Shown here in pieces: positions 3,508 to 35,928 of a DNA stretch of 64,000 nucleotides (positions are counted from its first letter, which is position 1; each line of letters starts with the position of its first letter). This DNA is from an uncultured Desulfatibacillum sp. (GTDB lineage Bacteria; Desulfobacterota; Desulfobacteria; Desulfobacterales; SpSt-501), in the NCBI GenBank assembly GCA_964427375.1, contig CAYRUF010000005.1, forward strand, positions 69,286 through 133,285, read 5' to 3'. The notes beneath the pieces were generated by a model. That model was given only the letters and a program-made list of their open reading frames with translations. It did no database searches and was not told where the DNA came from. The position numbers and the translations under genes were made by a program.

Positions 3508-3568
3508 GTTGCATCTCCTCTGTTGGTCGTTTTTTTCAAGTAATCATTCGCCCTCGGCGTGCGAGGGA

Positions 3569-4723: not shown

Positions 4724-4797
4724 AATTACGGCCTCCCTTTGTTGCTCAGAGGTATCGGTTGACGAATGCCCCTATTCGGTTCAACGTGGGCATTGAG

Positions 4798-5556
4798 CTA
4801 AAGCACCAGCTCCGACGCATCGGTGATCTCCTGCCGGAGCCGGAGAAATTTCATGTCCGTGTGCTCCCGCGGCCGCGGCAGATGGACGTCATAGACTTCG
4901 TGCATGCGGCCAGGCAGCTTTCCCTTCAGCGTAACGATGCGGTCGCCCAGATAGATCGCTTCATCGATGTTGTTGGTCACGAACAGAACCGTCCGCTTTT
5001 CGGTCTCCCAAATGCGGGCGGTCTCCTTTTCCATGAAGTAGCGGGTCTGCGCGTCGAGCTGGCCGAACGGTTCGTCGAGCAGCATGACCTTGGGGTTGTT
5101 GGCGTAGGCCCGGGCGATGCCCACGCGCTGCTTCATGCCGCCGCTCAGCTGGTGGGGGTAATGTTTTTCGAAACCGTTCAGACCCACCAGGTCGATGTAG
5201 CGCTGCGCGATCCGTCGGCATTCCTCTTTGGCAACGCCGTTCAGCTGCGGGCCGAGTTCGACATTGCCCATGACCGTCTTCCAGCCGAAGAGCATGTAGC
5301 TTTGGAAAACCAAGCCGCGGTCCGGCCCGGGTCCGGCAACCGCCTCCCCGTCAATCCTGACCGAACCTTCGCTGGGGGTCTCCAGGCCGGCGATGATGCG
5401 CAGCAAGGTACTTTTCCCGGACTGCCCAGGCCCCAGGATGACCAGGAATTCCTTGTCGCGGACGGATAGACTGATGTCCTCGAGAACATGGACACGCTGC
5501 TTGCCTTTCTGGATGAAGACTTTGGTAATGTTCCGGCATTCGATTTTCGGTGTCAT
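4798..5556 (-). CDS. ABC transporter ATP-binding protein (NitT/TauT family), canonical motifs
   Basis: Walker A is GPGQSGKST, the signature is LSGGMKQR and Walker B is MLLDEPF. Confidence 0.9.
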   Translation of the reverse strand: MTPKIECRNITKVFIQKGKQRVHVLEDISLSVRDKEFLVILGPGQSGKSTLLRIIAGLETPSEGSVRIDGEAVAGPGPDRGLVFQSYMLFGWKTVMGNVELGPQLNGVAKEECRRIAQRYIDLVGLNGFEKHYPHQLSGGMKQRVGIARAYANNPKVMLLDEPFGQLDAQTRYFMEKETARIWETEKRTVLFVTNNIDEAIYLGDRIVTLKGKLPGRMHEVYDVHLPRPREHTDMKFLRLRQEITDASELVL

Positions 5557-5585
5557 AACTTGTTCCTAAAACCCCACCGGCAGAA

Positions 5586-6467
5586 TCACAGGCCGGCGAT
5601 ATCTCGTTTCCACGGGCACAGCAGCTTTTCCAGGCCGCTCACCAGCATAGACGAGAGCCAAGCCACGATGGCGATGATGACCATGCCGCCGATCACCAGG
5701 GAGGTGTCCGATATTTTCATGCCCTGCACGATGATGAACCCCAGCCCGGAGCGGGAAGCCACCAGCTCCGCTGCCAAAACACAAGTCCAGGCCATGGAGA
5801 GCGAAATCTGCAGTCCAGCGAAAATGGCTGGAAAGGATGCCGGAAAGCTCACCTGGATGATTTCATTCCAGCGTCTCCCGCCCAGGACCTTGATGACGTC
5901 GTATAGCTCCGGCTCGATCAGGCGGACGCCGTTGTAGGAGTTGAGCAGGCAGGGCACAAAAGTGCCGATGACGATGATGAAGATCTTGGACGGTTCGCCG
6001 ATGCCAAACCAAAGGATCGAAATGGAAATCCAGGCGATCGGCGGCATGGGCTTGAAGATGTCGAACACCGGCTTGACGATGGCGTTCACATAGGGGTTGA
6101 GGGCCATGAACAGCCCCAAGGGGATCGCCAGCGCCGATGCCAGGATAAATCCGATGAAAATGCGCTGGGCGCTGGCCCAGATGTGCCCCCAGATCGTGAG
6201 GCCCGCCAGCGTGTCGGTCATCAACCCCTGGAAGCGTGCCACCACCTGCCAGGGGGTGGCGAGGGCGCCGGCGAAAAAACCGCTGACGGCAACATGGTGC
6301 CACAGGAGCAGGAAAGCGACGATGGACACGACATGGAGCAGGTATTCGTTGGTAATGATGCGCCGGAGGGTCAGCGGCTTTTTCTCCCGGACCGTTTGCT
6401 GGACTTCATCGGCAATGGAGCTGCCCTGCCGGCCGAGGCTCTGGATGTTTTCCTGAAGCTCTGCCAT
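5586..6467 (-). CDS. ABC transporter permease (NitT/TauT family)
   Basis: Multi-pass membrane ORF. I trimmed the start to ATG 6467 (MAELQENIQ...). The longer track ORF (to 6671) would overlap the upstream permease and its extension is Arg/Gly-rich junk. Confidence 0.85.
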   Translation of the reverse strand: MAELQENIQSLGRQGSSIADEVQQTVREKKPLTLRRIITNEYLLHVVSIVAFLLLWHHVAVSGFFAGALATPWQVVARFQGLMTDTLAGLTIWGHIWASAQRIFIGFILASALAIPLGLFMALNPYVNAIVKPVFDIFKPMPPIAWISISILWFGIGEPSKIFIIVIGTFVPCLLNSYNGVRLIEPELYDVIKVLGGRRWNEIIQVSFPASFPAIFAGLQISLSMAWTCVLAAELVASRSGLGFIIVQGMKISDTSLVIGGMVIIAIVAWLSSMLVSGLEKLLCPWKRDIAGL

Positions 6468-6472
6468 GAGCG

Positions 6473-7267
6473 TTACCTCCTGATCCCGGCCAGTAGCCGC
6501 CGTTCCACATAGTCGATCAACACGCCGATGGCGGCCCCGGCTAAACCCACCGATACCATGCCCAGTACAACCATATCCGGCAGGGCCAGGCGCCGGCCCA
6601 TCGTGATCAGGTAGCCGAGGCCCTGGTCGGCGGCGAGCAGCTCGGCGCCCACCAGATTGGTCCAGGCGCACGCCAGCGCGATTTGCAGCGCGCCGAAGAC
6701 CATCGGCAGTGCCGAAGGCACGCAGAGGGTCTTAAAGATCTGCCAGTCCGTGGCGCCGTACGTGCGGGCCATCTGGATCAGGGTGGGGTTGGTCATGCGC
6801 ACACCGACAAAGGCGTTGATCACGCACGGAACCACGCCGCCGAGCCAAATGATAAAGACCTTGCCCCACAGGCCGATACCGAACCAGAAGACGGTCAGCG
6901 GAATCCAGGCGATCGGCGGAATCGGACGGATCAGCTCGAACAGCGGTCGGGCCAGCCCGCGCACCACACTGAACCAGCCCATGAAGAGCCCCAGCGGCAG
7001 GCCAATACCCAGGGCCAGAAGATACCCCAGGAATGCCTCCTGAGCGCTCACCCAAGCGTGCATGAAAATGGTTGCGCCGTCCGGATTGGGGTCGGTGAGC
7101 TTGGTCACGAACAAATTGCCGACCTGGGTCGGAGCGGCCAGCATGGTCTTCGGCACGATGTCGAGCTGCACGACCAGCTCCCAAGCAGCGAAAAATGTCA
7201 GAACGCTGAAAATCGGCAACAGGATCAAGCTCAATGGTTTTTTGACTTTTACTTCCTCGTACGCCAT
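6473..7267 (-). CDS. ABC transporter permease (NitT/TauT family)
   Basis: Paralogue of the downstream permease. The start is set at ATG 7267 (MAYEEVKVKK...), preceded by GGGGAGG. Confidence 0.85.
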   Translation of the reverse strand: MAYEEVKVKKPLSLILLPIFSVLTFFAAWELVVQLDIVPKTMLAAPTQVGNLFVTKLTDPNPDGATIFMHAWVSAQEAFLGYLLALGIGLPLGLFMGWFSVVRGLARPLFELIRPIPPIAWIPLTVFWFGIGLWGKVFIIWLGGVVPCVINAFVGVRMTNPTLIQMARTYGATDWQIFKTLCVPSALPMVFGALQIALACAWTNLVGAELLAADQGLGYLITMGRRLALPDMVVLGMVSVGLAGAAIGVLIDYVERRLLAGIRR

Positions 7268-7367
7268 TTTTCGCCTCCCCGAGCGCCGGCCCATTGGGCC
7301 GGTGGGAATGGCCGGGCGACCCGGTCGGCCGGCGCCTTGGAAGACGCCGGGCCGGCCGGTGAACCGG

Positions 7368-8456
7368 TTACTTCAGATCGTCCGTCGGAATGGGGGTTTT
7401 GACCAGTTTGAGGAACTTGTCGGTCACGTATGCGGAATCCTTGACCTTGGCGAAATCCTCCGGCTTGAAGCGGCCCTGCGCCGTGAAGAACTCCCCGATC
7501 AGGAACTGCCACTTGCCGGCCGTGCTCATACCCTTGGAAGAATCAAAGAGCTTCAACTGCTGTTCCAAATTCCACACCGGGTGGTTGTCGATGTCCAGTT
7601 TGGCCATCTCCGCGGTCATTTCCATACCCCCCCAATCCTTCATGAATTTTTGGTACAGTTTGACGACCTCGGGGCTGCTGCCGTGCTTGAGCTGGAAGTT
7701 CACGCCCCGCAGGTAGACCCGCAGGAATTTGGCCACGATTTCCGGGTTCTTGTCGCAGAATTCCTTGTCGCCGATGAGAGTGATGGGCAGGGCGCGTCCG
7801 GCGGAGCGGACGTCCCCAACCTTCTTGTAGCCCTTGGACTCGGCGGAGTAGGTGTACGGCGCCCACAACACGACCACATCGCCGATCCCCTTTTCAAACG
7901 CGGCAATGGCCGAGGCCTGATCCATCTGCTTGATGACCACATCGCTGTCCTTAAGTCCGAGGACGTTCAGCCAAGAGCTCATGGCGTAGTGGGCCGAGGA
8001 AACGGTAGTGACCAAAATGGTCTTGCCCTTCACGGTCTCCGGCGAGCCGTACACTTCGGGATTCTCCTTGTTGAACCCCTTGACTTTAAGGATGGGGCTA
8101 TCCGGCCGGACATAAACGTTGTTCGTAATGGATTCATCGTTCCCCAGCCCGATCTGATAGGCACCGTAGCGCAGAGCGCCGACCACCTGCGGAACGCCGC
8201 CGGTGCCGCCCAGCACCCACTGCTTGGCCGGCAAGGCTTCCATCTGGGCCATACCGGAATCAAAGAAGAGCAACTCCAGGTCCAGGCCTTCCTCTTTGTC
8301 CCAGCCCCTCTGCTTGGCCAGCCAGGGGAAGAAGGTTTCATGTTCCGGCATCCAGCAGGTCTTGAGTTTGATGGGTGCTTGGGCCTGTACCGGCGTGAAG
8401 GAAAACACCAGCAAAGCTGCCAGAATCAGTGCACTGAAGAAAGCGAACTTTTTCAT
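7368..8456 (-). CDS. ABC transporter periplasmic substrate-binding protein, NMT1/SsuA/TauA-like
   Basis: 362 aa with a signal peptide (MKKFAFFSALILAALLVFSFTPVQAQA). The overall pattern resembles NMT1/THI5-like binding proteins. Confidence 0.85.
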   Translation of the reverse strand: MKKFAFFSALILAALLVFSFTPVQAQAPIKLKTCWMPEHETFFPWLAKQRGWDKEEGLDLELLFFDSGMAQMEALPAKQWVLGGTGGVPQVVGALRYGAYQIGLGNDESITNNVYVRPDSPILKVKGFNKENPEVYGSPETVKGKTILVTTVSSAHYAMSSWLNVLGLKDSDVVIKQMDQASAIAAFEKGIGDVVVLWAPYTYSAESKGYKKVGDVRSAGRALPITLIGDKEFCDKNPEIVAKFLRVYLRGVNFQLKHGSSPEVVKLYQKFMKDWGGMEMTAEMAKLDIDNHPVWNLEQQLKLFDSSKGMSTAGKWQFLIGEFFTAQGRFKPEDFAKVKDSAYVTDKFLKLVKTPIPTDDLK

Positions 8457-8617
8457 TTAATAGCTCCTTTCCAACATGAGAGTTGTCGAATTCCTTTCCA
8501 AATCTCACTCCTCGTTGGGGTCAGGTCCGGACCCCTGCGGTTTTGCCTTCTGTGGCGGCACCTCCTTATAATTTGGATTTACCCTCTTGGCCGGCCGTAG
8601 TGGCCGGCTCCTCGGCA

Positions 8618-9385
8618 TTACCACCATCGGATCAGTTCCGTGACCTGTTTGCGGATGGCGACGAATTTGGGATCGATCAAGCTGCGTGGCCTGGGAAGGT
8701 CGACCTCGACTTCGGCCTTGATGTTGGTCGGCTTATTGCTGAGAACCAGGATGCGTTCGGCCACGTAAACAGCTTCTTCGATGTTGTGGGTGACGAAGAT
8801 GACCGTGCTTTTGAGCGTCTGCCAGAGTTTGACGAGTTCGTCCTCCAGGTAGTAGCGCAATTTGACGTCCAGCTGGCCGTAAGGTTCGTCCATCAGCAGC
8901 AGGTCGGGGTCCACGGCAAAGGCACGAGCGACGGTGATGCGTTGCACCATGCTGGCTGAGACCTGGTTGGGGTAGAGGTTTTGCGTCTCGGTGAGTCCAA
9001 CCAGATCCAGCATATAATCAACCCGCTTGCGGACGTCATCGCCCTTGAAGCCCTTGATCTCCATGCCGTAGGCTACATTTTGACGGACCGTCCGCCACGG
9101 CAGGCAGGTCGGCTCCTGGAAAACAAAGGAGATGTTGTGCTTCTTGGGGTCGGCCACCTCGCCGTCGATGAAGATGTCCCCCTCGCTGGTGGGCATGAGC
9201 TTGGAAAGGCAGTTTAAAAAGGTGGTCTTGCCGCAGCCCGTCGGTCCGACGATGGCCAGAAACTCGCCCTGGGCGACCTGGAAGTTGATTCGGTTCAGCA
9301 CCAGGAGGTCGCCGAACCGTTTGGTCAGGTTCTTAACTTCAATTTTGACGCGTCTTGTTTCCGGGTTCAGGGCTGCAGCTTCCAA
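8618..9385 (-). CDS. ABC transporter ATP-binding protein with degenerate signature motif
   Basis: Walker A is GPTGCGKTT and Walker B is LLMDEPY, but the LSGGQ position reads VSASMVQR. The start is TTG at 9385, preceded by GAGGAG with a 6-nt spacer. Confidence 0.85.
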   Translation of the reverse strand: MEAAALNPETRRVKIEVKNLTKRFGDLLVLNRINFQVAQGEFLAIVGPTGCGKTTFLNCLSKLMPTSEGDIFIDGEVADPKKHNISFVFQEPTCLPWRTVRQNVAYGMEIKGFKGDDVRKRVDYMLDLVGLTETQNLYPNQVSASMVQRITVARAFAVDPDLLLMDEPYGQLDVKLRYYLEDELVKLWQTLKSTVIFVTHNIEEAVYVAERILVLSNKPTNIKAEVEVDLPRPRSLIDPKFVAIRKQVTELIRWW

Positions 9386-9672
9386 GGAGTGCTCCTCATT
9401 TATGCTGGCTCGGCACTGGCCGGCGATCCAGTGTCTGCTCTGCCGTTGATGATTGTCTCCCGAGATTTTGCAGGGTTTGACAATGCGTTTCTTGGATGCA
9501 TTGGAAAGGAGGTATCTTGACGTGAAGGATGCGGCGAACGCCTGGTGAAATCATAAAACCGCAGGGGCTGAGACTCAAACGCCGCCATGGATCGAACCGT
9601 CCTGCACAAGTGTCCGACATGCGTTTCCGTGAAGGTTTCGACGGCCGGTTGATTGGAGCGATAACCGGCGCT

Positions 9673-9689
9673 TGATATATCAGATATCA
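9673..9689. promoter_or_regulatory. Candidate operator: palindrome TGATATATCA followed by GATATCA
   Basis: TGATATATCA (9673-9682) is a perfect 10-bp palindrome, immediately followed by a repeat of the GATATCA half. It is an AT-rich patch about 290 bp upstream of the operon's first gene. The operon ends with a GntR regulator. Confidence 0.3.
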
Positions 9690-9901
9690 GAAAACGGCGT
9701 CAAGAACTATTTGAGGGCTTTCGGTAGCGGAGCTGAATTAAAAAATGCGCGCTCGGGTAAATGCCGGTCGGCATCAGATGCTCGAAGTCTGAGGATGATT
9801 CCGGGTTGCCTTCGGAACAAACGGGATTGCCCAATCGCTTGAAAAGCGATGCAGAGCCAGATCCATTTCGTGACGGTCGGGAGAAAACGGATACGAGCTG
9901 G

Positions 9902-10178
9902 GTGCTCGTCGTCCTCACCATCTTGGGCCTGGCGGCCGGCGCACCGCTGGCCCTACGTGGTCGGGGCCTTTGGAGTGCTCGCGTTCGCGGCGACGGACCA
10001 GGGGCGGTATCCGGCGGTCCAGCCCCAGCGCATCTTATCCCAGATCGACAGCTTCTCCCTCGTGGCCATGTGCCTCTTTATCACCACCGGGGAAATCATG
10101 AACCGTACCGGCGTCACCCGCGCGCTGGTGGACTTCACCATGTGCCGGGTCGGCCGCCTCCGCGGGGGGTCGGGGTAT
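9902..10178 (+). pseudogene. TRAP transporter large permease (DctM) N-terminal fragment, frameshifted and truncated
   Basis: Two frames read VLVVLTILGLAAGAPLA / PYVVGAFGVLAFAA...ILSQIDSFSLVAMCLFITTGEIMNRTGVTRALVDFTMCRVGRLRGGSGYV. This matches the conserved DctM N-terminus (dSF.LlaiPlFilaGelMn.gGit.rLv.fa..lvG.lrGGl). Only about 100 of roughly 430 expected residues are present. Confidence 0.6.
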
Positions 10179-10205
10179 GTGAAGTGCGGGGGCAGCGACC
10201 GGTCC

Positions 10206-10392
10206 CGGAAGATCGCCGCCGTCTGCGCGGCGGCCGGGATCCCCTGCTACCTCGGAGGCTGCATCGAGACGCACCCGGGGGTTGGGGCCTCGGTTCCCTT
10301 TTCGCGGCGACGCCCAACATCGGTTCCGCGGCCGAGCTGCGCGCGGAGTCGGCCGATGTGGACGAGGAGAAAGTGGCGCGCTACCGGACGCC
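10206..10392 (+). pseudogene. Enolase-superfamily (mandelate racemase/muconate cycloisomerase-like) C-terminal remnant
   Basis: KIAAVCAAAGIPCYLGGCIETHPGVGAS, then after a frameshift LFAATPNIGSAAEL...ADVDEEKVARYR. This resembles the C-terminal barrel strands and the ...LDeeavarYR tail of enolase-superfamily enzymes. Confidence 0.45.
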
Positions 10393-13137
10393 TTATGGAC
10401 CTGCCGAATCGGTGTCGGTGTCCGGCCGGAGGTTGACCGCGGAGACCTTGTATTCCGGGATCTTGGATATCGGGTCGACCGCCGGGCCGGTCAGGAGGTT
10501 GGCGGGAGCTTCGTGCCAGTGGAACGCCATGAAAGCCTGCCCGCGAGCCACCCGCCGGTCGCGGCGGGCGACGGTCCGAATGGCGCCGCGCCGCGAGGCG
10601 ACCCGGATCGGACGGCCGTCGGCCAGGCCGCAGCGTTCGGCATCTTCCGGGTTGACGTCGATCCGGCTGTGCGACACAAGCGTTTCCAGCACCGGCGCGC
10701 GGCGGCTCATGCTGCCGGTGTGCCAGTGCTCCAACACGCGGCCGGTGGTCAGCACGACGGGATAGTCCGCGCTCGGTTCTTCGGCCGGCGGACGGTATGC
10801 CACCACGTGGAACTTGCCCCGGCCGCGGGTAAAACGCTCCGCGTGCAGACGCGGGGTGCCGGGATGGCCTGCATCCCAGACGGGCCATTGCAGGCCGCCG
10901 CACTGCGCCAGTCGCCCGTGGCGGACGCCGGCATAGATCGGCGTGAGCGATGCGATTTCATCCATGATCGCCTCGCTCGAAACATAAGCCATGGAGTAGC
11001 CGCATCGGGTCGCAACGTCCGCCACGATGCGCCAGTCCTCCCGGGCCTCGCTTGGCGCCGGAAGCGCACGGCGCACCAGCTGAATGCGGCGTTCCGTACT
11101 GGTGAAGGTGCCCTCTTTTTCTGCAAAGCAGGCGGCGGGCAGCACGACATCGGCCCGGAGGGCCGTTTCCGTCAGGAAGATGTCCTGGACGACCAGAAAG
11201 CCGATCCGGCTGAAAGCCGTTCGCGCATGGCTCAAATCGGGTTCGCTCATCAGCGGGTTTTCGCCGACCACATACAGCGCGTGCAGCCGTCCCTCGCCGG
11301 CGGCCTGGGCCATCTCCGTCAGCGACAGCCCCGGTTCGGGATCGAGCTCAACCCCCCAGGCCCGCGAAAACCTGGAGCGGACCTCGGCGTCGATCACTTT
11401 CTGGTAGCCGGGGAACACGTTCGGAAGCGCCCCCATGTCGCAGGCCCCCTGCACATTGTTCTGGCCGCGCAGGGGCGAGAAGCCCGTCCCCGGCCGGCCC
11501 ATGTTGCCGGTGAGCATGAGCAGATTGGCGACGGCTTTGACGTTGTCGGTGCCGGTGGTGTGCTGGGTGATCCCCATTCCGTATACGACGACCAGGGTCT
11601 CGGTCGTGCCGAGAATGCGGGCGCTGCGGGCGATGTCAGCCGCCGGGACGCCGGTGACGGCTTCCACGGTATGCGGTTCATAGGCGCCGAGCGAGCGCCG
11701 GAAGAGATCGAAATCCTCGCAGCGTTCGGTGACGAAGTCGGCCTTGAACAGCCCCTCGCGGAGGATGACGTGCATCAGGCCGTTGAGCAGGGCCACGTCG
11801 GTGCCCGGCCGGTGGCACAGGTGCACGGCGGCCATCTCCGCAAGCTCGGTTTGGCGGGGGTCGGCGACGATCAGCCGCGCGCCGTTCAGCCGGACGTTCT
11901 GTTTGATCCTTCGGCCGATGATCGGGTGGCACTCGGTCGTGTTGGAGCCGATCACCAGCAGGGCGGCCGCGCGCCCGATGTCATCGATGCTGTTGCTCAT
12001 AGCCCCCTCGCCGAAGGCAGCCAGAGCGGCCGCCACCGTGGAGGAATGGCACAGCCGGGCGCAGTGGTCGACATTGTTCGTGCGCAGGACGGCCCGGGCG
12101 AATTTCTGCACGATATAGTTCTCCTCATTCGTGCACTTGGCCGAACTCAGCACCCCGACGGCCCGGGGACCTCCTTCCTCGCGCGCGCCTATAAGTCCAG
12201 CCGCCACACGATCCAGGGCTTCCTCCCAGCCGGCTTCGCGGAATAGCTCCGCAACCGCCCCCCGGGTGTGCGACTTGAGAACCCCCTCCCGGCGGATCAA
12301 GGGGCGGGTGAGGCGTTCCGGGTGATGCACGAAATCCAGGCCGAAGCGTCCCTTCACGCACAGGCCGCCCTGGTTCACCGGGCTGCTGCGGTCGCCCTTG
12401 ACCGATACGATGCGGTCCCCGCGGACCCCGAGCGCCATGGAGCAGCCCACTCCGCAGAACGGGCACACCGTCGTAACCTCGCGCTGAGGGACCGCCGCCT
12501 GCTTGGGCACCAGCGCCCCGGTGGGGCAGCGCTCCACGCACTCGCCGCAGGTCTGGCAAACCGACTGCGCCAGGGGCTTCGCACCGAAGGCGCTGACGCG
12601 CGCGCGAAAGCCCCGCGAGGCGAAGTCGATCGCCCCCAGCCCCTGGATTTCATGGCACACCCGCACGCACTTGCCGCACAGGATGCATTTGTTGGGGTCG
12701 AAGGAAAAAGCGGGGTTGGAGTCGTCGATGGGCCTGGCGGCCGCCGTCCGGCGCAGGCGTCCGACGTCGGAAGGCCCCACGCCGAGGTAGCGCGCCACCG
12801 CCAGCAGCTCGCAGTCCCGAGCTTTGAAGCAGGTCAGGCAATCGTTCGGGTGGTTGGCGACGGCCAGCGCGATAATGTTGCGGCGGATGCGGCGGATGGA
12901 CTCGCTTTCCGTGGCGACCACCATGCCGTCCGCGGCCGGGGTGGTGCACGCGGTGGGCAGCCCCCGCAGGCCGTCGATCTGCACGATGCACAGCCGGCAG
13001 GCGCCGAAAGGCTTCAAGAAGGGATCGTCGCAGAGGGTCGGAATGTAGATGCCGGCCGACCGGGCCGCCTGGAGGACGGTCGATCCCGCCGGCGCCTGGA
13101 CGATGCGGCGGTCAATGGTGAGGGAGATCGATTTCAC
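10393..13137 (-). CDS. fdhA: Formate dehydrogenase alpha subunit (molybdopterin, Cys-type) with NuoG-like N-terminal 2Fe-2S/4Fe-4S domains
   Basis: It has an N-terminal 2Fe-2S ferredoxin (CRLCIVQIDG), a HPNDCLTC motif and 2x4Fe-4S (CILCGKCVRVC, CQTCGECVERCP). The MopB 4Fe-4S is TVCPFCGVGCS, the active site is VDHCARLCHSST (Cys at the Sec/Cys position), and RGQNNVQGACDMG is present. I set the start at GTG 13137 (VKSISLTIDRR) with GGAGGA upstream. There is no Tat signal, so the enzyme is cytoplasmic. Confidence 0.9.
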   Translation of the reverse strand: MKSISLTIDRRIVQAPAGSTVLQAARSAGIYIPTLCDDPFLKPFGACRLCIVQIDGLRGLPTACTTPAADGMVVATESESIRRIRRNIIALAVANHPNDCLTCFKARDCELLAVARYLGVGPSDVGRLRRTAAARPIDDSNPAFSFDPNKCILCGKCVRVCHEIQGLGAIDFASRGFRARVSAFGAKPLAQSVCQTCGECVERCPTGALVPKQAAVPQREVTTVCPFCGVGCSMALGVRGDRIVSVKGDRSSPVNQGGLCVKGRFGLDFVHHPERLTRPLIRREGVLKSHTRGAVAELFREAGWEEALDRVAAGLIGAREEGGPRAVGVLSSAKCTNEENYIVQKFARAVLRTNNVDHCARLCHSSTVAAALAAFGEGAMSNSIDDIGRAAALLVIGSNTTECHPIIGRRIKQNVRLNGARLIVADPRQTELAEMAAVHLCHRPGTDVALLNGLMHVILREGLFKADFVTERCEDFDLFRRSLGAYEPHTVEAVTGVPAADIARSARILGTTETLVVVYGMGITQHTTGTDNVKAVANLLMLTGNMGRPGTGFSPLRGQNNVQGACDMGALPNVFPGYQKVIDAEVRSRFSRAWGVELDPEPGLSLTEMAQAAGEGRLHALYVVGENPLMSEPDLSHARTAFSRIGFLVVQDIFLTETALRADVVLPAACFAEKEGTFTSTERRIQLVRRALPAPSEAREDWRIVADVATRCGYSMAYVSSEAIMDEIASLTPIYAGVRHGRLAQCGGLQWPVWDAGHPGTPRLHAERFTRGRGKFHVVAYRPPAEEPSADYPVVLTTGRVLEHWHTGSMSRRAPVLETLVSHSRIDVNPEDAERCGLADGRPIRVASRRGAIRTVARRDRRVARGQAFMAFHWHEAPANLLTGPAVDPISKIPEYKVSAVNLRPDTDTDSAGP

Positions 13138-13163: not shown

Positions 13164-15014
13164 TCAACAGATGGCGATCGCCTGCTGCTTGCAGGACTGG
13201 TAGCACATGCCGCAGCGGGTGCACCGGCTCGTGTCGATGACGTGCGGCGCTTTTTTCTCCCCGGCCACGGCCCCCGTCGGACATTCGCGGGCGCAGCGGT
13301 GGCAGCCCGTACAGCGTTCGGGGTCGATTTCATAGTGAAAAAGATCCCGGCAGACCCCCGCCCGGCATTTGCGGCTATGGACATGACTCTCGTATTCCCC
13401 GCGGAAATAGCGCAGGGTGGAAAGGACCGGGTTGGGCGCGGTCTGCCCCAGCCCGCACAGCGATCCTTTCTGGACGGTCTCGCTCAGGTCGGCCAGCAGG
13501 TCGAGATCCGCCTCCCGGCCGCGGCCGCCGCAGATGTCCTCCAGGATGTCGAGCATCTGTCGGGTTCCCAGGCGGCAGGGCAGGCACTTGCCGCAGGATT
13601 CCGCCTGGGTGAAGCTCAGGAAGTAGCGCGCCACGTCCACCATGCAGGTGTCCTGGTCCATGACCACCATGCCGCCGGAGCCCATGATGGAGCCGGCCGC
13701 CACGAGGGATTCGTAGTCGGCCGGCAGGTCGAAACGGCCGGCCGGGATGCAGCCTCCGGAAGGCCCGCCCGTCTGGACCGCCTTGAGGGCCTTGCCCTCG
13801 GGCGCGCCGCCGCCGATGCCCTCGATGATGTCGCCCAGGCTCATTCCGAGAGGAACTTCGATCAGGCCGGTGCGGCGGATCTTGCCGGCCAACGAAAACG
13901 TCTTGGTGCCCTTGCTGGATTCGGTGCCGAAGCGGGAATACCATTCGGCTCCGCGCTGCAGGATGGCGGAGACGTTGCCGAGCGTCTCGACGTTGTTGAT
14001 GGTGGTGGGCTCGCCCCACAAGCCGGACTGGGCCGGAAACGGAGGCCGGGATCGGGGCATGCCGCGCTCGCCTTGAATCGAGGCCATCAAGGCGGTCTCC
14101 TCGCCGCAGACAAAGGCTCCGGCGCCTTGTTTGATCGCGACCTGGAACCGGAACCGGCTGCCCAATACGTTCCGGCCCAGGAGGCCGCAACGCTGCATAT
14201 CGGCGATGGCTTTTTCCAGACGGGCGATGGCCAGCGGGTATTCGGCGCGCGCGTAGATGTAGCCTTCGTCGGCGCCGATGGCATAGGCGGCGATGAGCAT
14301 GCCTTCCAGCACGGCGTGCGGATCGCCCTCCAGCAGCGCGCGGTCCATGAAGGCGCCGGGGTCGCCTTCGTCGGCGTTGCAGACGATGTACTTCGATCGG
14401 CCGGGGGCCCGGCGGGCGAAAGCCCATTTGGTCCCGGTGGGAAAGCCGGCCCCGCCGCGGCCGCGCAGCCCGGAGTCCGTGACTTCGCGGATCACCGCTT
14501 CGGGCGGCATGTCCAGGGCGCGCTTGAGGCCGGCGTAGCCGCCGCGGGCGATGTAGTGGTCGATGTGGGTCGGGTCGATATGCCCGCAGTTGCGCAGAGC
14601 GATGCGAACCTGGGAGCGCATCATCGGGTGCCGCTCCATGGGCGGGATGCCCTCGATCTCGCCTTGGCCGCAAGTGAACTCCGCCCAACGCCGGCAGGGA
14701 TCGTCCTGTTTCAGGTAGCGGGTGAGGATCGTCTCGGTTTTTTCCGGCGTCAGCCCACCGTAGAAGATCGCCGGCCTTCCCGGCTTGCGGACGCTCATGA
14801 GGGGCTCGGCATAGCACATGCCGATGCAGCCGACCTCCATGAAGCGGGCCAGGACACGAGCCGATTTCAACGTCTTTTTGGCGGCGGCCAGGACCTGTTC
14901 GGCACCCGAAGCGCGGCCGCAGGTCCCCATGCCGATGGCGATCAACGGCTGCGGAAGGTTTTCCAGCCACGCCCACTCCCGTTCCGCCTTGGCTTGCAGC
15001 GACTGGTAGTCCAT
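13164..15014 (-). CDS. NuoF/HydB(HndC)-type NAD(P)H-FMN flavoprotein with N-terminal thioredoxin-like 2Fe-2S and C-terminal 2x[4Fe-4S] domains
   Basis: 616 aa with GRGGAGFPTGTKW, CNADEGDPGAF, ESCGKCLPCRLG and a C-terminal CTGCHRCARECP...CTRCGMCYQSC. The N-terminus has GTCGRASG...GCIGMCYAEP. Confidence 0.9.
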   Translation of the reverse strand: MDYQSLQAKAEREWAWLENLPQPLIAIGMGTCGRASGAEQVLAAAKKTLKSARVLARFMEVGCIGMCYAEPLMSVRKPGRPAIFYGGLTPEKTETILTRYLKQDDPCRRWAEFTCGQGEIEGIPPMERHPMMRSQVRIALRNCGHIDPTHIDHYIARGGYAGLKRALDMPPEAVIREVTDSGLRGRGGAGFPTGTKWAFARRAPGRSKYIVCNADEGDPGAFMDRALLEGDPHAVLEGMLIAAYAIGADEGYIYARAEYPLAIARLEKAIADMQRCGLLGRNVLGSRFRFQVAIKQGAGAFVCGEETALMASIQGERGMPRSRPPFPAQSGLWGEPTTINNVETLGNVSAILQRGAEWYSRFGTESSKGTKTFSLAGKIRRTGLIEVPLGMSLGDIIEGIGGGAPEGKALKAVQTGGPSGGCIPAGRFDLPADYESLVAAGSIMGSGGMVVMDQDTCMVDVARYFLSFTQAESCGKCLPCRLGTRQMLDILEDICGGRGREADLDLLADLSETVQKGSLCGLGQTAPNPVLSTLRYFRGEYESHVHSRKCRAGVCRDLFHYEIDPERCTGCHRCARECPTGAVAGEKKAPHVIDTSRCTRCGMCYQSCKQQAIAIC

Positions 15015-15023: not shown

Positions 15024-16022
15024 CTAATCCTCCTCCGGCCGCTCCGGGATGGGGATGCGCTCCTGCTCCCGAATGTCAGCGAAACACCGGCAGGCACTGG
15101 CCGGGTTCATGCGGCCCTTGACGGAATCGTCCACCACCATGACCGGCGCAATGGCGCAGGAACCGAAGCAGGCCACGGTTTCGAGGGTGAACTGCCGGTC
15201 CGGCGACGTCTCCCCGGGAGACAGCTCGAAGCGGTGATGGATTTCCTCCAGAATGCGGTCCGAGCCTTTGACGTGGCAGGCCGTGCCGCGGCAGACGCGG
15301 ACGATGTGGCGGCCGACGGGGGCGAGGCGGAACTGCTCGTAGAAGGTGGCGGTGCCGAAAACGGCGGCAGCCGGCCGCCCGGTCAGCTGCGCGACGGCCT
15401 CGAGGGCGTTCTCCGGCAGATATCCCAATCGCCCCTGAACCATCTGGAGCATGGGAATCACCTCGTCGGGCCGGCCGGCGAATTGACTGCGCAGCTCGGC
15501 CAGGAGGCGGTCGATGCGGGCCGGGTCCTCGCGGGTCAGATGCAGGTCCGCTTCGAGCGGCGCGGCCGGCGGCGCCGGCGCCGGCACGGGGTGCGCGGCC
15601 TCCGGTGCCGTTGCCTTCTTCGAACCCAGGGCGCCTTTGACCGCCGAAACGAATTCGTCTTCGCTGAACGGCTTGGAGAGATAGTCTGCCGCCCCGAGTT
15701 TCATGGCCGTGACCGCCGAGTCCACCGTGGAATAGCCGGTGATCACGATCACGCCGGTTTCCGGCCGGTCGTGCTTGACCTGCCGAATCACCTCCAGGCC
15801 GTCGATGTCGGGAAGACGCAGGTCGGCGATGAGCAGGTCGACCTCCTTGTGATGGAACGTGTCCAGCGCGGCCTGGCCGGACATGGCCAGGTCCACGGCG
15901 CGGTAGCCCTCTTCGTCCAGGATCATCTGAAGCCCCCTGGCCACGCTGGTTTCGTCTTCCAGCACCAGAATCTGCGGCCATGGGCGTTCTGCCGAATGGA
16001 CGGCTTCCTGCAGCGCATTCAT
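15024..16022 (-). CDS. Response-regulator receiver domain fused to NuoE/HydC-type [2Fe-2S] ferredoxin subunit
   Basis: Start at ATG 16022 (MNALQEAV...). REC motifs are ILVLEDE, DLLIADLRLPDIDG, VITGYS and YLSKPF. An Ala/Pro linker is followed by NuoE motifs VCRGTACHVKG and ACFGSCAIAPV. Confidence 0.85.
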   Translation of the reverse strand: MNALQEAVHSAERPWPQILVLEDETSVARGLQMILDEEGYRAVDLAMSGQAALDTFHHKEVDLLIADLRLPDIDGLEVIRQVKHDRPETGVIVITGYSTVDSAVTAMKLGAADYLSKPFSEDEFVSAVKGALGSKKATAPEAAHPVPAPAPPAAPLEADLHLTREDPARIDRLLAELRSQFAGRPDEVIPMLQMVQGRLGYLPENALEAVAQLTGRPAAAVFGTATFYEQFRLAPVGRHIVRVCRGTACHVKGSDRILEEIHHRFELSPGETSPDRQFTLETVACFGSCAIAPVMVVDDSVKGRMNPASACRCFADIREQERIPIPERPEED

Positions 16023-16056: not shown

Positions 16057-16752
16057 CTACCAGGCCTCCCGTTCCAGCCGATGGTAGATGAATCGGAGCT
16101 GATCGCCCGAAAGGGTCTCGACGTGTTCACGGAGCCACTGCACGTCGCCCGAGGCGATCGCCGCCTTGGCTTCGGCGGTCAGCCGGTAGCCGTCCAGAAC
16201 CGCGGAACCCCGCTCCATCAGCTCCTTCCAGAAGCCTTCGTCCAGCCGGGTGCGGTCCAGTACCGCGACGACCTCGCGTTTCTGGATGAGCTTGTCTTCC
16301 TCGCACTTTTCAACCTTCTGGATCACCTCTTCGGTGGGGGCCGATTTATGGCCCTTGAGCGCGTCGCCCACGGCCGTTTTGATCTCATCCTCGGTGAAGG
16401 GCTTGGGCAGGTAGTCGAACGTGCCCAGCTTCATCGCATCCACCGCGGAGGAAACGCTCGCATAGCCGGTGATAACCACCACACCGGTCTCGGGCCGCCG
16501 CGTCTTCACCTCGCGGATAACGTCCAGGCCGCTGATATCCGGCAGCCGCAGGTCCGCCACCAGCAGGTCGAACGCCTTCTGCGAGAAGCGATCCAGGGCA
16601 TCGCGTCCGGTCATGGCCAAATCCACGGCGTAGCCTTCTTCGCCGAGAACGATTTCAAGGCCCTTGGCCACGCTCATTTCATCCTCCATCACGAGAATCC
16701 TGGGCGGGACCGGGTGCGGTCGGCTGATGGTGGTGTCTTGGAAGGTAAACAT
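16057..16752 (-). CDS. Stand-alone receiver-domain protein with unassigned ~85-aa C-terminal helical domain
   Basis: Start at ATG 16752 (MFTFQDTT...), preceded by GAGGAGGA. REC motifs are ILVMEDE, DLLVADLRLPDISG, VITGYA and YLPKPF. The C-terminus (LDEGFWKELMERGSAVLDGYRLTAEAKAAIASGDVQWL...) faintly resembles LigA-subunit/NHLP-type helical domains. Confidence 0.8.
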   Translation of the reverse strand: MFTFQDTTISRPHPVPPRILVMEDEMSVAKGLEIVLGEEGYAVDLAMTGRDALDRFSQKAFDLLVADLRLPDISGLDVIREVKTRRPETGVVVITGYASVSSAVDAMKLGTFDYLPKPFTEDEIKTAVGDALKGHKSAPTEEVIQKVEKCEEDKLIQKREVVAVLDRTRLDEGFWKELMERGSAVLDGYRLTAEAKAAIASGDVQWLREHVETLSGDQLRFIYHRLEREAW

Positions 16753-16791: not shown

Positions 16792-16807
16792 AGCAAGCCG
16801 CATGCCG
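16792..16807 (-). promoter_or_regulatory. Sigma-54 (-24/-12) promoter of the REC-REC/NuoE-NuoF-FdhA operon
   Basis: The minus strand reads CGGCATGCGGCTTGCT against the consensus TGGCACG-N4-TTGCW, with correct GG-N10-GC spacing. It lies about 40 nt upstream of ATG 16752. Confidence 0.6.
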
Positions 16808-16992: not shown

Positions 16993-18426
16993 TCACCGGG
17001 GCTCATTCGAAGGGCCGGTGTCGGCTCCTCGGTCGGGGGTGATGCCGTGCCGTTTCAGCAGGGTGGAGAAGTTGGGCCGCTGCATGCCGACAGCCTTGGC
17101 CGCCGCGCTGATGTTCCCTCCGGCGTTGGAAAGCGCTTTGAGCAGAAAGGCCTTTTCCATCCGGCCATAGTGCTCCTCAATGATGCGTTTCTTTAGCGCA
17201 CGCAGCTCGCCCAGCGTGCCGGGGACCCGGCTGGCGGCACCTCCCCGGCTGCCGTGCAGATTGTCCATCAGGTGGTGATAATCCAGGATGGATTCGTCCG
17301 CCATGATCACCAGCCGTTCCACCACATTTTTGAGCTGCCGCACGTTGCCCGGCCAGTCATGGTTGATCAGGGCTTCCAGGGCTTCGTCGCTGAAGCCCTG
17401 GATCCGCCGGCCCATCTCGCGGCAGTAGATGCGGAGGAAGTGATAAGCCAGCTTGGGGATGTCCTCGCGGCGCTCCCGCAGCGGGGGGATGAAAATGGGC
17501 AGGACGCTCAGCCGGTAGAACAGATCCTCGCGAAACCGGCCCTCCTCGGCCAGCGACCTCAGGTCCTGGTTGGTGGCGGCGATGATGCGGATGTCGGTCC
17601 GGCGCGGCAGGCTTGCGCCGACCGGCCGGTACTCGCGGGTTTCCATCACGCGCAGCAGCTTGCCCTGAACGTCCAGCGTCAAATTGGCCACTTCGTCCAG
17701 GAACAGGGTCCCGCCGTTGGCCACTTCGAAAATGCCGGGCTTATCGTGGGTGGCGCCGGTGAACGCTCCTTTGACATGCCCGAACAGCTCGCTTTCCAGC
17801 AGCGACGGCGCAAAGGTGCTGCAATCGGCCACCACGAACTGCCGGTCGGCGCGGTGGCTGTGGGCGTGGATGGCCTTCGCGAACAGCTCCTTGCCGGTGC
17901 CGCTTTCGCCCTCCAGCAGAATGATGGTCTCGGTCGGGGCGGCCCGGCGGATTTCCTCGAAGATGCGCAGCATTTTCGGGTTTTCGCCGACGATGTTGCT
18001 GAAATCAAATTTGGCATACAGCTGTCGGCGCAGGGCCAGGTTTTCCTCGGTCAGCCGCCGGGTCTTGACGGCTTTCTCAACGGTCAGGACGAGCTCTTCG
18101 TCCGAAAACGGCTTGGACAGGTAGTCGAAAGCGCCCAGCTTCATGGCTTTCACGGCGTCCGGCACCGAGGAATAGCCGGTCATGACCACCACGCTGACCC
18201 TGGGACGCTCGCGGTGGATGACTTCGAGGACTTGAAGCCCGTCGATGTCCGGGAGCTTCATGTCCAGCAGGACCAGTTCATAGGGGTTTTTCCCCAGCGA
18301 TTCGAGGCCGCTGCAGCCGTCGTGCACGGCGTCCACGGCGTATCCCTGGTCGCACAGGACCAGGCGGCAGCCGGCACAGACGGCAGGTTCGTCGTCGATG
18401 ATCAGGATGGATGCGGACGGCGTCAT
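16993..18426 (-). CDS. Sigma-54-dependent response regulator (NtrC family: REC-AAA+-Fis HTH)
   Basis: The REC phospho-acceptor context is LVLLDMKLPDIDG. Other motifs are GESGTGKELFA, GAFTGA, ESELFGH and a C-terminal HTH (GNISAAAKAVGMQRPNFSTLLKRHGI). Confidence 0.92.
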   Translation of the reverse strand: MTPSASILIIDDEPAVCAGCRLVLCDQGYAVDAVHDGCSGLESLGKNPYELVLLDMKLPDIDGLQVLEVIHRERPRVSVVVMTGYSSVPDAVKAMKLGAFDYLSKPFSDEELVLTVEKAVKTRRLTEENLALRRQLYAKFDFSNIVGENPKMLRIFEEIRRAAPTETIILLEGESGTGKELFAKAIHAHSHRADRQFVVADCSTFAPSLLESELFGHVKGAFTGATHDKPGIFEVANGGTLFLDEVANLTLDVQGKLLRVMETREYRPVGASLPRRTDIRIIAATNQDLRSLAEEGRFREDLFYRLSVLPIFIPPLRERREDIPKLAYHFLRIYCREMGRRIQGFSDEALEALINHDWPGNVRQLKNVVERLVIMADESILDYHHLMDNLHGSRGGAASRVPGTLGELRALKKRIIEEHYGRMEKAFLLKALSNAGGNISAAAKAVGMQRPNFSTLLKRHGITPDRGADTGPSNEPR

Positions 18427-18439: not shown

Positions 18440-19663
18440 TCAAGCCGGGCCTTGCGCGGAGGGCAGGGCCACGGTGAATTGCGATCCCTGTCCCGGCCGG
18501 CTGGACACCTCCAGCCGCCCCTGGTGGTTTTTGACGATTCCGAAACTGACCGCCAGGCCGAGCCCGGAGCCGTTTTTCTTGGTCGAGAAGAAGGGCTCGA
18601 AGATCTTGCCCAGATTTTCGGCCGGGATTCCGCAGCCGGTGTCGATGATGTCCACGGTTAGCTCGCGGCGGGCCGAATTCGCGCGGGATCGAATGGTGAT
18701 CGTGCCGTTCTCGTCGATGGCTTGGGCTGCGTTGAGCAGCAGGTTCACGAACACCTGCTCCAGCTGGTTGGCGTCGACGCAGCCGTCCGGCAGATCGGGG
18801 GCCAGATCTTTTTCGATTCGGATGTGCCTCAGGCGGAATTCGTTCTCAAGGATGTTGAGGGATTTCTGAAGGATGGTGGTGATGCTGGCCGGGGTCTTGC
18901 GGGGCTCTTTGTCGCGGGCGAACTCCAGCAGCTCCTGGATGATGAACTTGCAGCGTTGGGTTTCCCGCATGATGATCCCCAGGCCTTCTTTCAAGGGGCC
19001 TTCGTCCGGAACCTTCTTGAATAAATTCGAGCTGAAGAGCAGGATTCCGGCCAAGGGGTTGTTGATCTCGTGCGCGATCCCGGCCGCCATGCGTCCCAAC
19101 GCCGAAAGCTTCTCCGTCTGCAAGGCCAGCAGGTCGAACTTGTTCTTCTGGGCTTCGATGAGGCGGTTTTTTTCGATCGCCAGCGCGCACTGGTCCGCCA
19201 GGGAAACCAGAAAGTCGCGCTCCTCGTCCGATACCGATCGTGCTTCAGCAAAGTAAATCCGCAGGATGCCGGCGATGTGGTTGCGGAAACTCAGGGAGGT
19301 GTCCAATACCATCCGGATCCCCTCCCTGGCAACCTCCTGGGGGTAGTGGATGCGAGGGTCGTGATGGATATCCTCGATCACGATCACCCGGCTTTGACGA
19401 TACAGGTCCGTGATCAGGTTTTTCTGGCTGACGGGTCCTTTGGCCAGGTAGGCTTCGCTGAGATTGTAGGCGGCGCTCAACTCCAGCTCGTCCGTGTCCA
19501 GGTTGAGGATGCGCAGGATGGCGCCCTTGGCGCCCAGCGCCTCGGTGGCCTTCCAGACCGCCAGGTCCAGAACTTCCTTCAAATCGGTGCTGGAGTGCAC
19601 CGCCTTGCTGATTTCGCGGAAGGTGTTGTAAAAGACATGGAGGTTGCTGGCGTTCGGCTTCAT
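18440..19663 (-). CDS. Cytoplasmic GAF-domain sensor histidine kinase
   Basis: 407 aa with no TM segment. It has an N-terminal GAF-like region, an H-box (AAGIAHEINNPL), an N-box (LLNAAQA) and G-boxes (DTGCGI, GSGLGLA). Confidence 0.9.
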   Translation of the reverse strand: MKPNASNLHVFYNTFREISKAVHSSTDLKEVLDLAVWKATEALGAKGAILRILNLDTDELELSAAYNLSEAYLAKGPVSQKNLITDLYRQSRVIVIEDIHHDPRIHYPQEVAREGIRMVLDTSLSFRNHIAGILRIYFAEARSVSDEERDFLVSLADQCALAIEKNRLIEAQKNKFDLLALQTEKLSALGRMAAGIAHEINNPLAGILLFSSNLFKKVPDEGPLKEGLGIIMRETQRCKFIIQELLEFARDKEPRKTPASITTILQKSLNILENEFRLRHIRIEKDLAPDLPDGCVDANQLEQVFVNLLLNAAQAIDENGTITIRSRANSARRELTVDIIDTGCGIPAENLGKIFEPFFSTKKNGSGLGLAVSFGIVKNHQGRLEVSSRPGQGSQFTVALPSAQGPA

Positions 19664-26304: not shown

Positions 26305-26715
26305 ATGCACCCGCTTTCCTCCACGCCTTGGTACTCACCCTGGGAAGTCGGGCTTTTCAGCCTCGGCCTTTTCAGCCTCCTCTGTTTAGGCTTCATCATC
26401 GCCATGCTGGCCGTATCATCCTGGATCGGGGAACGGCGCTACTCAAGAGAAAAAATGCGTCCCTACGAGTGCGGCGTGATCCCCACCGGAACGGCCCGGC
26501 TGCGCTATCCGGTTCCGTTTTATCTCGTGGCCATCTTTTTTCTGCTCTTCGACGTCGAGGGCGCCTTCATCTTCTCCTGGGCGGTGTCCTTCCGCGAACT
26601 CGGCTGGCAAGGCTGGTTTGAAATCCTGTTCTTCATCGTGATGCAGGGGCTGGGGCTGGTCTACGTGTGGAAAAAGGGGGGGCTCGAGTGGGGGCCGACG
26701 CGGAAAAAGGCATAA
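26305..26715 (+). CDS. nuoA: NADH-quinone oxidoreductase subunit A
   Basis: 136 aa with three TM segments and the motifs YECG and FDVE. Confidence 0.9.
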
Positions 26716-29078: not shown

Positions 29079-29090
29079 CGTGATGGTTGC

Positions 29091-29140
29091 GTGGGAGAGG
29101 CCTCCGGCCTCGATGATCGCGGCTGGAAGCCGCTCCCACA
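29091..29140. repeat. REP-like compound palindromic element (copy 1)
   Basis: GTGGGAGAGGCCTCCGGCCTCGATGATCGCGGCTGGAAGCCGCTCCCACA has outer arms GTGGGAG/CTCCCAC enclosing two small hairpins. Related copies are at 31249-31285 and 51072-51119. Confidence 0.7.
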
Positions 29141-29239
29141 GAGACAGCAGGGATTCGCGCGCCTTGATCTCGGCCTTTGATCGAAGCCATCGGGTGCCTG
29201 TTTTTATTGACTTCAAGTTTTTAATCGCTCAATGAGGCT

Positions 29240-29731: not shown

Positions 29732-29750
29732 TTGATGGGTGAGCAACCAA

Positions 29751-29840
29751 CGATACTGGCTGCTCGATACGGGATACGGGATGAAAGAGGGGCCATTTCG
29801 CATATTTTATCCAGCATCCAGTATCCAGTATCCCGCATCG
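29751..29840. repeat. Inverted arrays of heptamer repeats (GATACNG units) in the nuoE-nuoF spacer
   Basis: The left arm is CGATACTGGCTGCTCGATACGGGATACGGGAT (29751-29782). The right arm is ATCCAGCATCCAGTATCCAGTATCCCGCATCG (29809-29840). The arms match at 24 of 32 positions as reverse complements (counted by eye), and each is built from about 4.5 tandem 7-mers. Confidence 0.7.
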
Positions 29841-29909
29841 CGTTTCGAATACGACGAATGAAGGAACAAAGGCCAAACTGCCGTTGCAGGCGGACAGCTG
29901 CGAGAGTAA

Positions 29910-31226: not shown

Positions 31227-31248
31227 CCCTGATGAATGTGAGTTTTTT

Positions 31249-31285: not shown

Positions 31286-31287
31286 TT

Positions 31288-35311: not shown

Positions 35312-35368
35312 GAGCGTGGACCCGTTTGCCCGTGCACCCGTGGACCCGGTGGAGATCATGTCCTTCTT

Positions 35369-35406: not shown

Positions 35407-35415
35407 ATACTATCC

Positions 35416-35925: not shown

Positions 35926-35928
35926 CTC

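Follow-up and report, generated by a model that had tools for sequence, protein, structure and literature searches.

A receiver domain fused to the BfuC-type iron-sulfur subunit of a putatively electron-bifurcating formate dehydrogenase in an uncultured Desulfatibacillum

What is a phosphorylatable receiver domain doing on the electron-transfer subunit of a redox enzyme? The question is raised by a gene in a 64,000-nucleotide stretch of DNA from an uncultured Desulfatibacillum sp. (assembly GCA_964427375.1, contig CAYRUF010000005.1, positions 69,286 to 133,285; the whole stretch is referred to here as the window). Its product, REC-BfuC, joins a receiver (REC) domain to a NuoE-like [2Fe-2S] protein, and the gene lies in a formate dehydrogenase (FDH) operon of the order recX, rec-bfuC, bfuB, fdhA, all on the minus strand, in which RECX is a second receiver protein (Table 1). 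A first-pass annotation, made from the sequence without database searches, had recognised the fusion and proposed that the enzyme is under direct two-component control. As set out below, the enzyme appears to have receiver domains bound to it physically.

The fusion open reading frame (ORF) runs through 332 codons without interruption from an ATG at 16022, which is preceded by a GGGGGA ribosome-binding site and whose position is shared with homologues. Pfam searches identified PF00072 at residues 18-129 (profile positions 1-111 of 111, E 1.1e-29, 103 bits against a cut-off of 30.2) and PF01257 at residues 179-313 (E 1.6e-43, 148.5 bits). In an alignment of 23 diverse homologues with 53-95% identity, the E22/D23 acidic pair, D67, T95 and K117-P118 of the receiver are invariant, as are the cluster ligands C244, C249, C285 and C289. 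Scores with the NCBIfam NuoE equivalog models fall just under the cut-off (136.5 vs 141), which marks the protein as NuoE-like and not as the NuoE of complex I, and the best solved relatives of this domain are 7t2r_C, 8a6t_C (HydC) and 8oh5_A. The protein is thus a BfuC/HydC-type [2Fe-2S] subunit with an added N-terminal receiver that holds all residues for aspartyl phosphorylation. Its assignment to complex I was rejected, as the window has another nuo operon, at 29.2-41 kb, that includes a plain NuoE gene. That operon (26667-41020, plus strand) encodes a fused NuoB-C-D (803 aa), a short NuoF (438 aa), NuoG, NuoH and NuoL/M/N, and its NuoE (29240-29731, 163 aa) carries no receiver, in the same genome as the fusion.

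The fusion could have been an artefact of a frameshift or misassembly that joined a response-regulator gene to nuoE, and relatives with separate RECX and NuoE genes do exist. In a search of 5.8 billion clustered proteins (representatives of clusters at 90% identity), which returned 1453 matches, all of the best 120 (53-95% identity, 283-341 aa) contained both PF00072 and PF01257, and they come from many independent assemblies. Since RECX is encoded alongside the fusion, the latter is not RECX joined to NuoE. With the unbroken frame and the same architecture in the best 120 homologues, an artefact has a negligible probability and is considered ruled out. The homologues are annotated in their source records only as "NuoE" or "NuoE/CheY-like". 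Among the genomes that carry them, the closest are Desulfobacterales and "delta proteobacterium" metagenome-assembled genomes (MAGs), with 93% and 82% identity, and other carriers are Desulfofustis, Desulfobulbaceae and Desulfuromonadales MAGs; all relatives are MAGs. The description given in the first-pass annotation therefore stands in each of its parts, well beyond what chance would give: a complete receiver whose acceptor Asp and conserved Lys are both in place, a NuoE/HydC ferredoxin with all four cysteines, an Ala/Pro-rich segment (here predicted to be disordered) between them, the expected pair of Pfam domains, and one frame with no stop or frameshift dividing the two.

The fusion is the only NuoE-like gene of its operon and takes the position of the plain NuoE in 12 related operons, and it is counted on these grounds as the small subunit of the adjacent flavoprotein. 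The flavoprotein gene, bfuB, starts 9 nt past the fusion stop codon, and its product is laid out as an N-terminal thioredoxin-like domain, an FMN/NADH site, an SLBB domain, a NuoF [4Fe-4S] domain and a C-terminal 2x[4Fe-4S] region (PF01512, PF10531, PF10589 and, twice, PF00037). BfuB residues 25-615 align to 9bov_B, NfnB 9n5u_B, NiFe-HydB 7t2r_B, 8oh5_B and HydB 8a6t_B, and these alignments keep the N-terminal thioredoxin-like domain and the C-terminal CxxCxxCxxxC motifs. The non-bifurcating FdsB (6tg9_B, 6vw7_B) covers residues 32-541 only; because the alignment to FdsB ends at residue 541 while the Bfu B subunits align over the full length, the flavoprotein is not FdsB-like. FdhA, which most likely starts at the GTG at 13137, 7 nt past a GGAGGA site, scores 805.6 bits with TIGR01591 (cut-off 666.25), matches Fer2_4, NADH-G_4Fe-4S_3, Fer4_Nqo3 and Molybdop_Fe4S4 in Pfam, and has the FdsA-type proteins 9wxb_B and 6tg9_A (769 bits) as its best solved relatives. 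The absence of an internal stop codon, together with the motif CARLCHSS at residues 359-366, identifies it as Cys-type; the motif is probably the counterpart of the Sec-His of E. coli FdhH.

Judged by domain content, the enzyme is a cytoplasmic three-subunit FDH (FdhA, BfuB and BfuC) of the HydABC-like Bfu family, and it putatively carries out electron bifurcation, i.e., the coupled reduction of NAD+ and ferredoxin. In the Type 1 Fdh-Bfu class of Schut et al. 2022 (PMC9304861), which was predicted and is uncharacterised, the pterin domain lies within BfuA, and by this domain definition the present FDH is assigned to that class. The cluster domain of BfuC has been proposed in the same paper to act as a mobile gate of bifurcation that moves in catalysis. 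The first-pass annotation had read the two genes following the fusion as a HydB/NuoF flavoprotein and a cytoplasmic Cys-type FdhA with NuoG-like domains, and the fusion as the small diaphorase subunit of an FDH linked to NAD(P) and ferredoxin; the Pfam and TIGR01591 matches, the features of FdhA given above and the structural relatives, which place the flavoprotein with the Bfu type, bear out both readings.

The AlphaFold2 (AF2) model of the fusion contains a confident receiver (residues 17-133, with five strand-helix pairs in (beta-alpha)5 order and a predicted local distance difference test score, pLDDT, mostly of 80-90) and a confident NuoE domain (167-320), separated by a linker in which residues 136-161 have a pLDDT <50. 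The predicted template modelling score (pTM) of the monomer is 0.43 and the domains have no defined mutual orientation. Mean column entropy, calculated per segment over 41 non-redundant homologues, is highest in the linker (2.64 bits), reaches 0.77 bits in the [2Fe-2S] thioredoxin-like domain and is lowest in the active-site loops of the receiver (0.11-0.28 bits). The most conserved surface elements of the receiver are alpha4 (0.76 bits) and beta5 (0.60 bits), with higher values for alpha1 (1.08 bits), alpha2 (1.45 bits), alpha3 (1.03 bits) and alpha5 (1.26 bits). Conservation of the receiver core equals that of the [2Fe-2S] domain in these homologues, and purifying selection on the receiver, its usual output face included, is on this measure no weaker than on the redox domain. 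These values bear on the idea that the receiver is never phosphorylated and serves only as a protein-protein module by which the complex is assembled or matured. Structural roles are known for pseudo-receivers in general, and the linker suggests a tethered binding module; nevertheless, E22, D23, D67, T95 and K117 are invariant down to 53% identity, no part of the protein varies less than the active-site loops, and a dedicated kinase always adjoins the locus. A purely structural role is accordingly given a very low probability.

RECX is encoded directly before the fusion, in the window as in each of the 12 related loci examined. Its start codon, the ATG at 16752 that follows AAAGAGGAGGA, agrees with orthologues of 231 aa, and in its AF2 model the receiver is followed by a long helix (residues 142-170) and a four-helix X domain, which comprises the C-terminal 75 aa and has a pLDDT >90. 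The fusion receiver is 68.7% identical to the receiver of RECX and 46.5% identical to that of the NtrC/AtoC-type activator encoded upstream. In a neighbour-joining tree of receivers, the fusion and RECX receivers grouped together in 95 of 100 bootstraps, with the fusion receivers nested within those of RECX, and the activator receivers were separate in 99 of 100. The difference in identity and the nesting in the tree show the fusion receiver to be a duplicate of the RECX receiver. All three receivers have in common the NtrC-family alpha4-beta5-alpha5 motif AMKLGAxDYLxKPF. In one related locus (L034, 9323-10639) the RECX orthologue is a 438-aa REC-REC-X protein with tandem receivers, and receiver duplication thus also occurs within the RECX gene family.

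The X domain of RECX is homologous to the extra C-terminal 70-80 residues of long FdhA proteins (hhalign 99.2%, E 2.6e-19). In Pfam it had only sub-threshold matches, to LigA and Frankia_peptide, and Foldseek searches with the RECX model were dominated by the receiver, so that nothing was learnt on X. Most of the proteins returned by profile searches with X are stand-alone (95-135 aa), and some carry the annotation Os1348-family NHLP-clan or PF14407. With NF038399, the model for Os1348-family NHLP-clan proteins, the window X scores 23.3 bits and does not reach the cut-off of 40, and stand-alone relatives pass it with 52.8, 53.7 and 40.3 bits; because of this sub-cut-off score and the linkage by profile searches, the X domain of the window is regarded as a divergent relative of that family. 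In Dehalococcoidia and Chloroflexota, a stand-alone X gene lies directly 5' of nuoE-nuoF-fdhA-X in 25 of the 62 listed loci. A scan with the stand-alone X proteins gave 76 further loci, of which ~55 have NuoF and/or FdhA within 7 kb. The remaining ~21 (including L131, L146, L150, L158, L160, L169, L183 and L185) have stand-alone X genes, often in two copies, and no FDH genes within 7 kb. These distributions point to X as an accessory module of this FDH family that exists on its own or as a fusion with FdhA or with a receiver, and as having at least one further context besides FDH. By the logic of domain fusion, since X is shared with the FdhA extension, RECX is probably an enzyme-associated protein and not a transcription factor.

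The order histidine kinase, enhancer-binding activator, RECX, (REC-)NuoE, NuoF, FdhA is kept in ~20 species-level loci, and comparison of the window proteins with ORFs of related loci places the cluster in Desulfobacterota, Syntrophales and Syntrophorhabdus MAGs. Three types of locus can be distinguished. In type A (the window, L001, L002, L022-L027 and L101), RECX and REC-NuoE occur with an FdhA of ~915-925 aa; in type A' (L103 and L104), RECX and REC-NuoE occur with an FdhA of ~990 aa; and in type B (12 loci), RECX occurs with a plain NuoE of 165-198 aa and an FdhA of ~975-990 aa. A strict either/or swap of REC on NuoE for X on FdhA was considered and rejected as a rule, as L103 and L104 have both.

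Between the kinase and recX lies the gene of the activator, which has the GAFTGA loop visible in its sequence and AtoC as its best NCBIfam match (421 bits, under the cut-off of that model). The kinase core resembles AtoS/ZraS, and wherever the flank of a Desulfobacterota-type locus is long enough, the kinase adjoins the activator. The 190-nt intergenic region between the activator gene and recX contains a predicted sigma-54-type promoter, and an element equivalent to it, matching at least 14 of 16 positions and keeping GG and GC, precedes recX in 18 of the 19 related loci; the background in these loci is 0.046 per 350 nt. The conserved promoter and the adjacent NtrC-type activator gene together indicate that expression of recX, rec-bfuC, bfuB and fdhA is sigma-54-dependent. 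The first-pass annotation had called the GAF kinase adjacent to the fusion, which does not hold: the activator and RECX lie between them. Both had been overlooked, as had the promoter, and they imply transcriptional control alongside any direct control of the enzyme. No specific match between the kinase GAF domain and FhlA was found, so FhlA-like formate sensing by this domain was not retained as more than conjecture; formate or redox state as the GAF signal are guesses.

Table 1. Features of the FDH locus, with positions in the window.
Feature	Position	Strand	Description
REC-BfuC fusion	15024-16022	(-)	332 aa; continuous ORF, Pfam, homologues, AF2 model
Receiver domain of fusion, residues 17-133	15624-15974	(-)	full-length PF00072; phospho-acceptor Asp67 codon 15822-15824
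Ala/Pro-rich linker of fusion, residues 134-166	15525-15623	(-)	low pLDDT, most variable segment, indels
NuoE/HydC/BfuC thioredoxin-like [2Fe-2S] domain of fusion, residues 167-320	15063-15524	(-)	PF01257; Cys244, 249, 285, 289
RECX	16057-16752	(-)	231 aa; PF00072; REC, long helix and C-terminal helical X domain (NHLP clan)
BfuB/HydB-type flavoprotein	13164-15014	(-)	616 aa; Pfam and full-length structural-relative alignments
FdhA	10393-13137	(-)	914 aa, Cys-type; NuoG-like Fe-S N-terminus and Mo/W-bis(pyranopterin guanine dinucleotide) (bisPGD) catalytic domain; no C-terminal X extension
Sigma-54-type -24/-12 promoter, predicted	16793-16807	(-)	CGGCATGCGGCTTGC; 39 nt upstream of recX ATG
NtrC/AtoC-type sigma-54 activator REC-AAA+-HTH_8	16993-18426	(-)	477 aa; PF00072, PF00158, PF02954
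Soluble histidine kinase GAF-HisKA-HATPase_c	18440-19663	(-)	407 aa; Pfam GAF_2, HisKA, HATPase_c

The best reading of this arrangement, to which we give about even chances, is that the FDH is controlled directly by phosphorylation of its attached receivers. In the proposed scheme, the single GAF kinase would phosphorylate three related receivers, those of the activator, RECX and REC-BfuC. The phosphorylated activator would turn the operon on; RECX would dock on the enzyme through X or through pairing of receivers, REC-BfuC being attached covalently; and the two phosphorylated proteins would alter contacts inside an FDH complex or from one complex to another, with dimerisation through alpha4-beta5-alpha5 as the likeliest means. 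The outcome would be a switch of enzyme assembly, activity or NAD/ferredoxin coupling that is quicker than transcription. BfuC would be an attractive target for such control because its cluster domain has been proposed to move and to gate bifurcation (PMC9304861). The reading is strengthened by the strict conservation of the receiver, by its origin from RECX and by the homology of the RECX X domain to a domain fused to FdhA. The more specific form of it, in which the BfuC and RECX receivers act as a phosphorylation-dependent pair that reconfigures the bifurcating FDH, either on/off or in its NAD-ferredoxin coupling, is put forward only tentatively.

Several observations weigh against direct control. 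That one kinase serves three receivers is an assumption drawn from synteny and from the similarity of alpha1 residues. The same operon occurs with a plain NuoE in the 12 type B loci, and the receiver is therefore dispensable for catalysis. The proposed replacement of X-on-FdhA docking by REC-on-NuoE docking probably rests on a single evolutionary event. Finally, the linker is disordered and hypervariable and the receiver is not docked on its own NuoE domain in the AF2 monomer, so that rigid intramolecular allostery is unlikely.

Some of the same evidence suits the main rival explanation, that the BfuC and RECX receivers are a phosphate sink which drains phosphoryl groups from the kinase and so limits operon expression in a dosage feedback, leaving the enzyme unaltered. 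Both extra receivers are encoded inside the sigma-54 operon that is presumably under the activator, three related receivers stand beside one kinase, and a flexible tether with no predicted docking would suit a domain that needs only to meet the kinase; the type B relatives, which lack the fused receiver, are compatible as well. However, neither the covalent link to an Fe-S subunit nor the homology of X with a domain fused to FdhA would be required for a sink, and RECX alone would already provide one from within the operon. The greater conservation of the alpha4/beta5 output face than of alpha1-alpha3 also argues against it, as do the Arg at D+2 and the Tyr at T+2 of the receiver, residues that are typical of slow dephosphorylation and would make poor sinks. 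On balance we regard the sink as rather unlikely.

The signal could also run in reverse, as in a trigger enzyme: the availability of the FDH-borne receivers would vary with the redox state or the catalytic state of the enzyme, and these receivers would compete or heterodimerise with the activator receiver and so report to transcription. The motif common to the three receivers would permit such exchange, the PDB entries 1ny5 and 3dzd describe NtrC1-type activators as kept inactive through receiver dimers, and BfuC is reported to move during turnover (PMC9304861). Reverse signalling is nonetheless purely speculative, and the fusion and activator receivers share only the 46.5% identity noted above; we consider it improbable. 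Direct control of the enzyme through its receivers thus remains the preferred reading.

The REC-NuoE architecture is recurrent and not unique. An exhaustive search (representatives at 50% identity) identified distant REC-NuoE fusions with 30-38% identity (P0275, P0278, P0293, P0310 and P0405) and a protein, P0269, with the tandem arrangement (REC-NuoE)x2. P0275 and P0293 are found in hydrogenase-type clusters with HydS-like, HATPase and PHP proteins, and P0269 adjoins another NuoF and an FdhA-like gene; the tandem gene lies upstream of that pair and beside NfnAB-like genes. Distant fusion loci include L105 (1978-3701), L108 (2820-3710) and L110 (8001-9737), and the HydS-like/HATPase/PHP cluster of L105 also encodes a REC+GCV_H protein. 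Another redox enzyme with receivers is P0263 (L106, 273-3926), a 1217-aa HdrA-like FAD/poly-ferredoxin protein with three receivers ~55% identical to the fusion receiver, which adjoins a REC-PAS histidine kinase. A search for the architecture and its neighbours, as the first-pass annotation had suggested, thus returned both domains throughout the best 120 matches, in a conserved setting of kinase, activator and RECX, and no description in the literature. Its statement that no characterised example was known is consistent with our full-text literature search, in which no description of a receiver fused to a NuoE/HydC/BfuC-type subunit was found, and the survey of the Bfu family (PMC9304861) does not mention response regulators, CheY or receivers.

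Comparison with known systems places the parts in familiar families. The HydABC-like Bfu enzymes (7t2r, 8a6t/7q4v, NfnABC 9n5u, Stn 8oh5) share the BfuB domain set, a NuoE-like BfuC with four cysteines and, with FdhA, a BfuA-like N-terminus, here fused to a pterin catalytic domain, but the described members have neither a receiver on BfuC nor a response-regulator accessory protein. FdsGBA(D) of Rhodobacter capsulatus (6tg9) and Cupriavidus necator (6vw7) is similar in its NuoE-/NuoF-like diaphorase subunits and in FdsA, the best solved match of FdhA; it differs in that FdsB lacks the C-terminal ferredoxin domain, FdsG lacks a receiver, and the small accessory subunit is FdsD, which has no match to X. 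Response regulators with enzymatic outputs, such as the CheB methylesterase, the PleD and WspR diguanylate cyclases and RpfG, likewise link a phosphorylatable receiver to an output that does not bind DNA and so place an enzyme under direct kinase control. Whereas their output is a self-contained catalytic domain, the receiver here is coupled to one electron-transfer subunit within a redox enzyme of several subunits, over a long disordered tether and in the company of a second receiver protein (RECX). In E. coli, control of fdhF is FhlA-dependent and sigma-54-dependent; FDH genes behind a sigma-54 promoter, an AAA+ activator and a GAF domain at the sensory end are features common to both systems, but in the window the GAF domain belongs to a histidine kinase of its own, and a response regulator of the two-component type takes the part of the activator. 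Operons of HydABC hydrogenases, with HydS-type sensory hydrogenases, HATPase and PHP proteins, also co-encode signalling proteins with Bfu-type enzymes, and P0275 and P0293 sit in such clusters; their partners and sensors are different and the arrangement of kinase, activator and RECX is absent. The receiver, the BfuC/NuoE subunit, the Bfu-type FDH and the NtrC-type sigma-54 system are thus all of known kinds. What appears to be undescribed is their combination: a receiver on BfuC, a companion REC-X protein sharing its output domain with FdhA, and a single adjacent kinase/activator pair.

The surroundings of the operon were also inspected. The GC content of the FDH operon (10-16 kb) is 67.5-68% and that of its flanks 56-62%; the FDH module may be a horizontally acquired insert. 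Searches for an intrinsic terminator past fdhA gave weak matches only. The ~1 kb region 3' of fdhA (9386-10436) has no convincing ORF and contains, on the plus strand, a truncated remnant of the TRAP permease DctM (profile positions 22-97 of 413). Further downstream, at 2140-9385 on the minus strand, are genes for a NitT/TauT-type ABC transporter (two ATPases, two permeases and an NMT1-like binding protein), an Fe-alcohol dehydrogenase and a class III aminotransferase, whose proximity to the FDH cluster is not kept in relatives. Elsewhere in the window, a cobalamin riboswitch (46407-46608, minus strand, 113 bits) lies directly 5' of a ThiC-family radical S-adenosylmethionine gene (45000-46403, minus strand), which may encode a BzaF-type 5-hydroxybenzimidazole synthase and not the thiamine enzyme ThiC.

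In anaerobes, Bfu-type enzymes set the balance of NADH, reduced ferredoxin and either formate or H2; among these organisms are syntrophs and sulfate reducers, for which formate serves to carry electrons between species. To our knowledge, essentially nothing is known of how the activity of these enzymes is controlled after synthesis, and a phosphorylatable domain on BfuC, the proposed mobile gate, offers a concrete handle on post-translational control of bifurcating enzymes. The analysis has as a by-product the X domain, a small uncharacterised NHLP-clan module tied to this FDH family. If the direct-control reading is true, an Fe-S electron-transfer subunit would join the list of response-regulator outputs, in a branched pathway that leads from one kinase to one transcription factor and two enzyme-borne receivers. 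In its more specific form, with a phosphorylation-dependent receiver pair, this would be the first two-component system found to gate a flavin-based bifurcating redox enzyme, and the presence of REC-NuoE fusions in hydrogenase-type and other FDH clusters would then suggest a general mode of post-translational control for Bfu enzymes.

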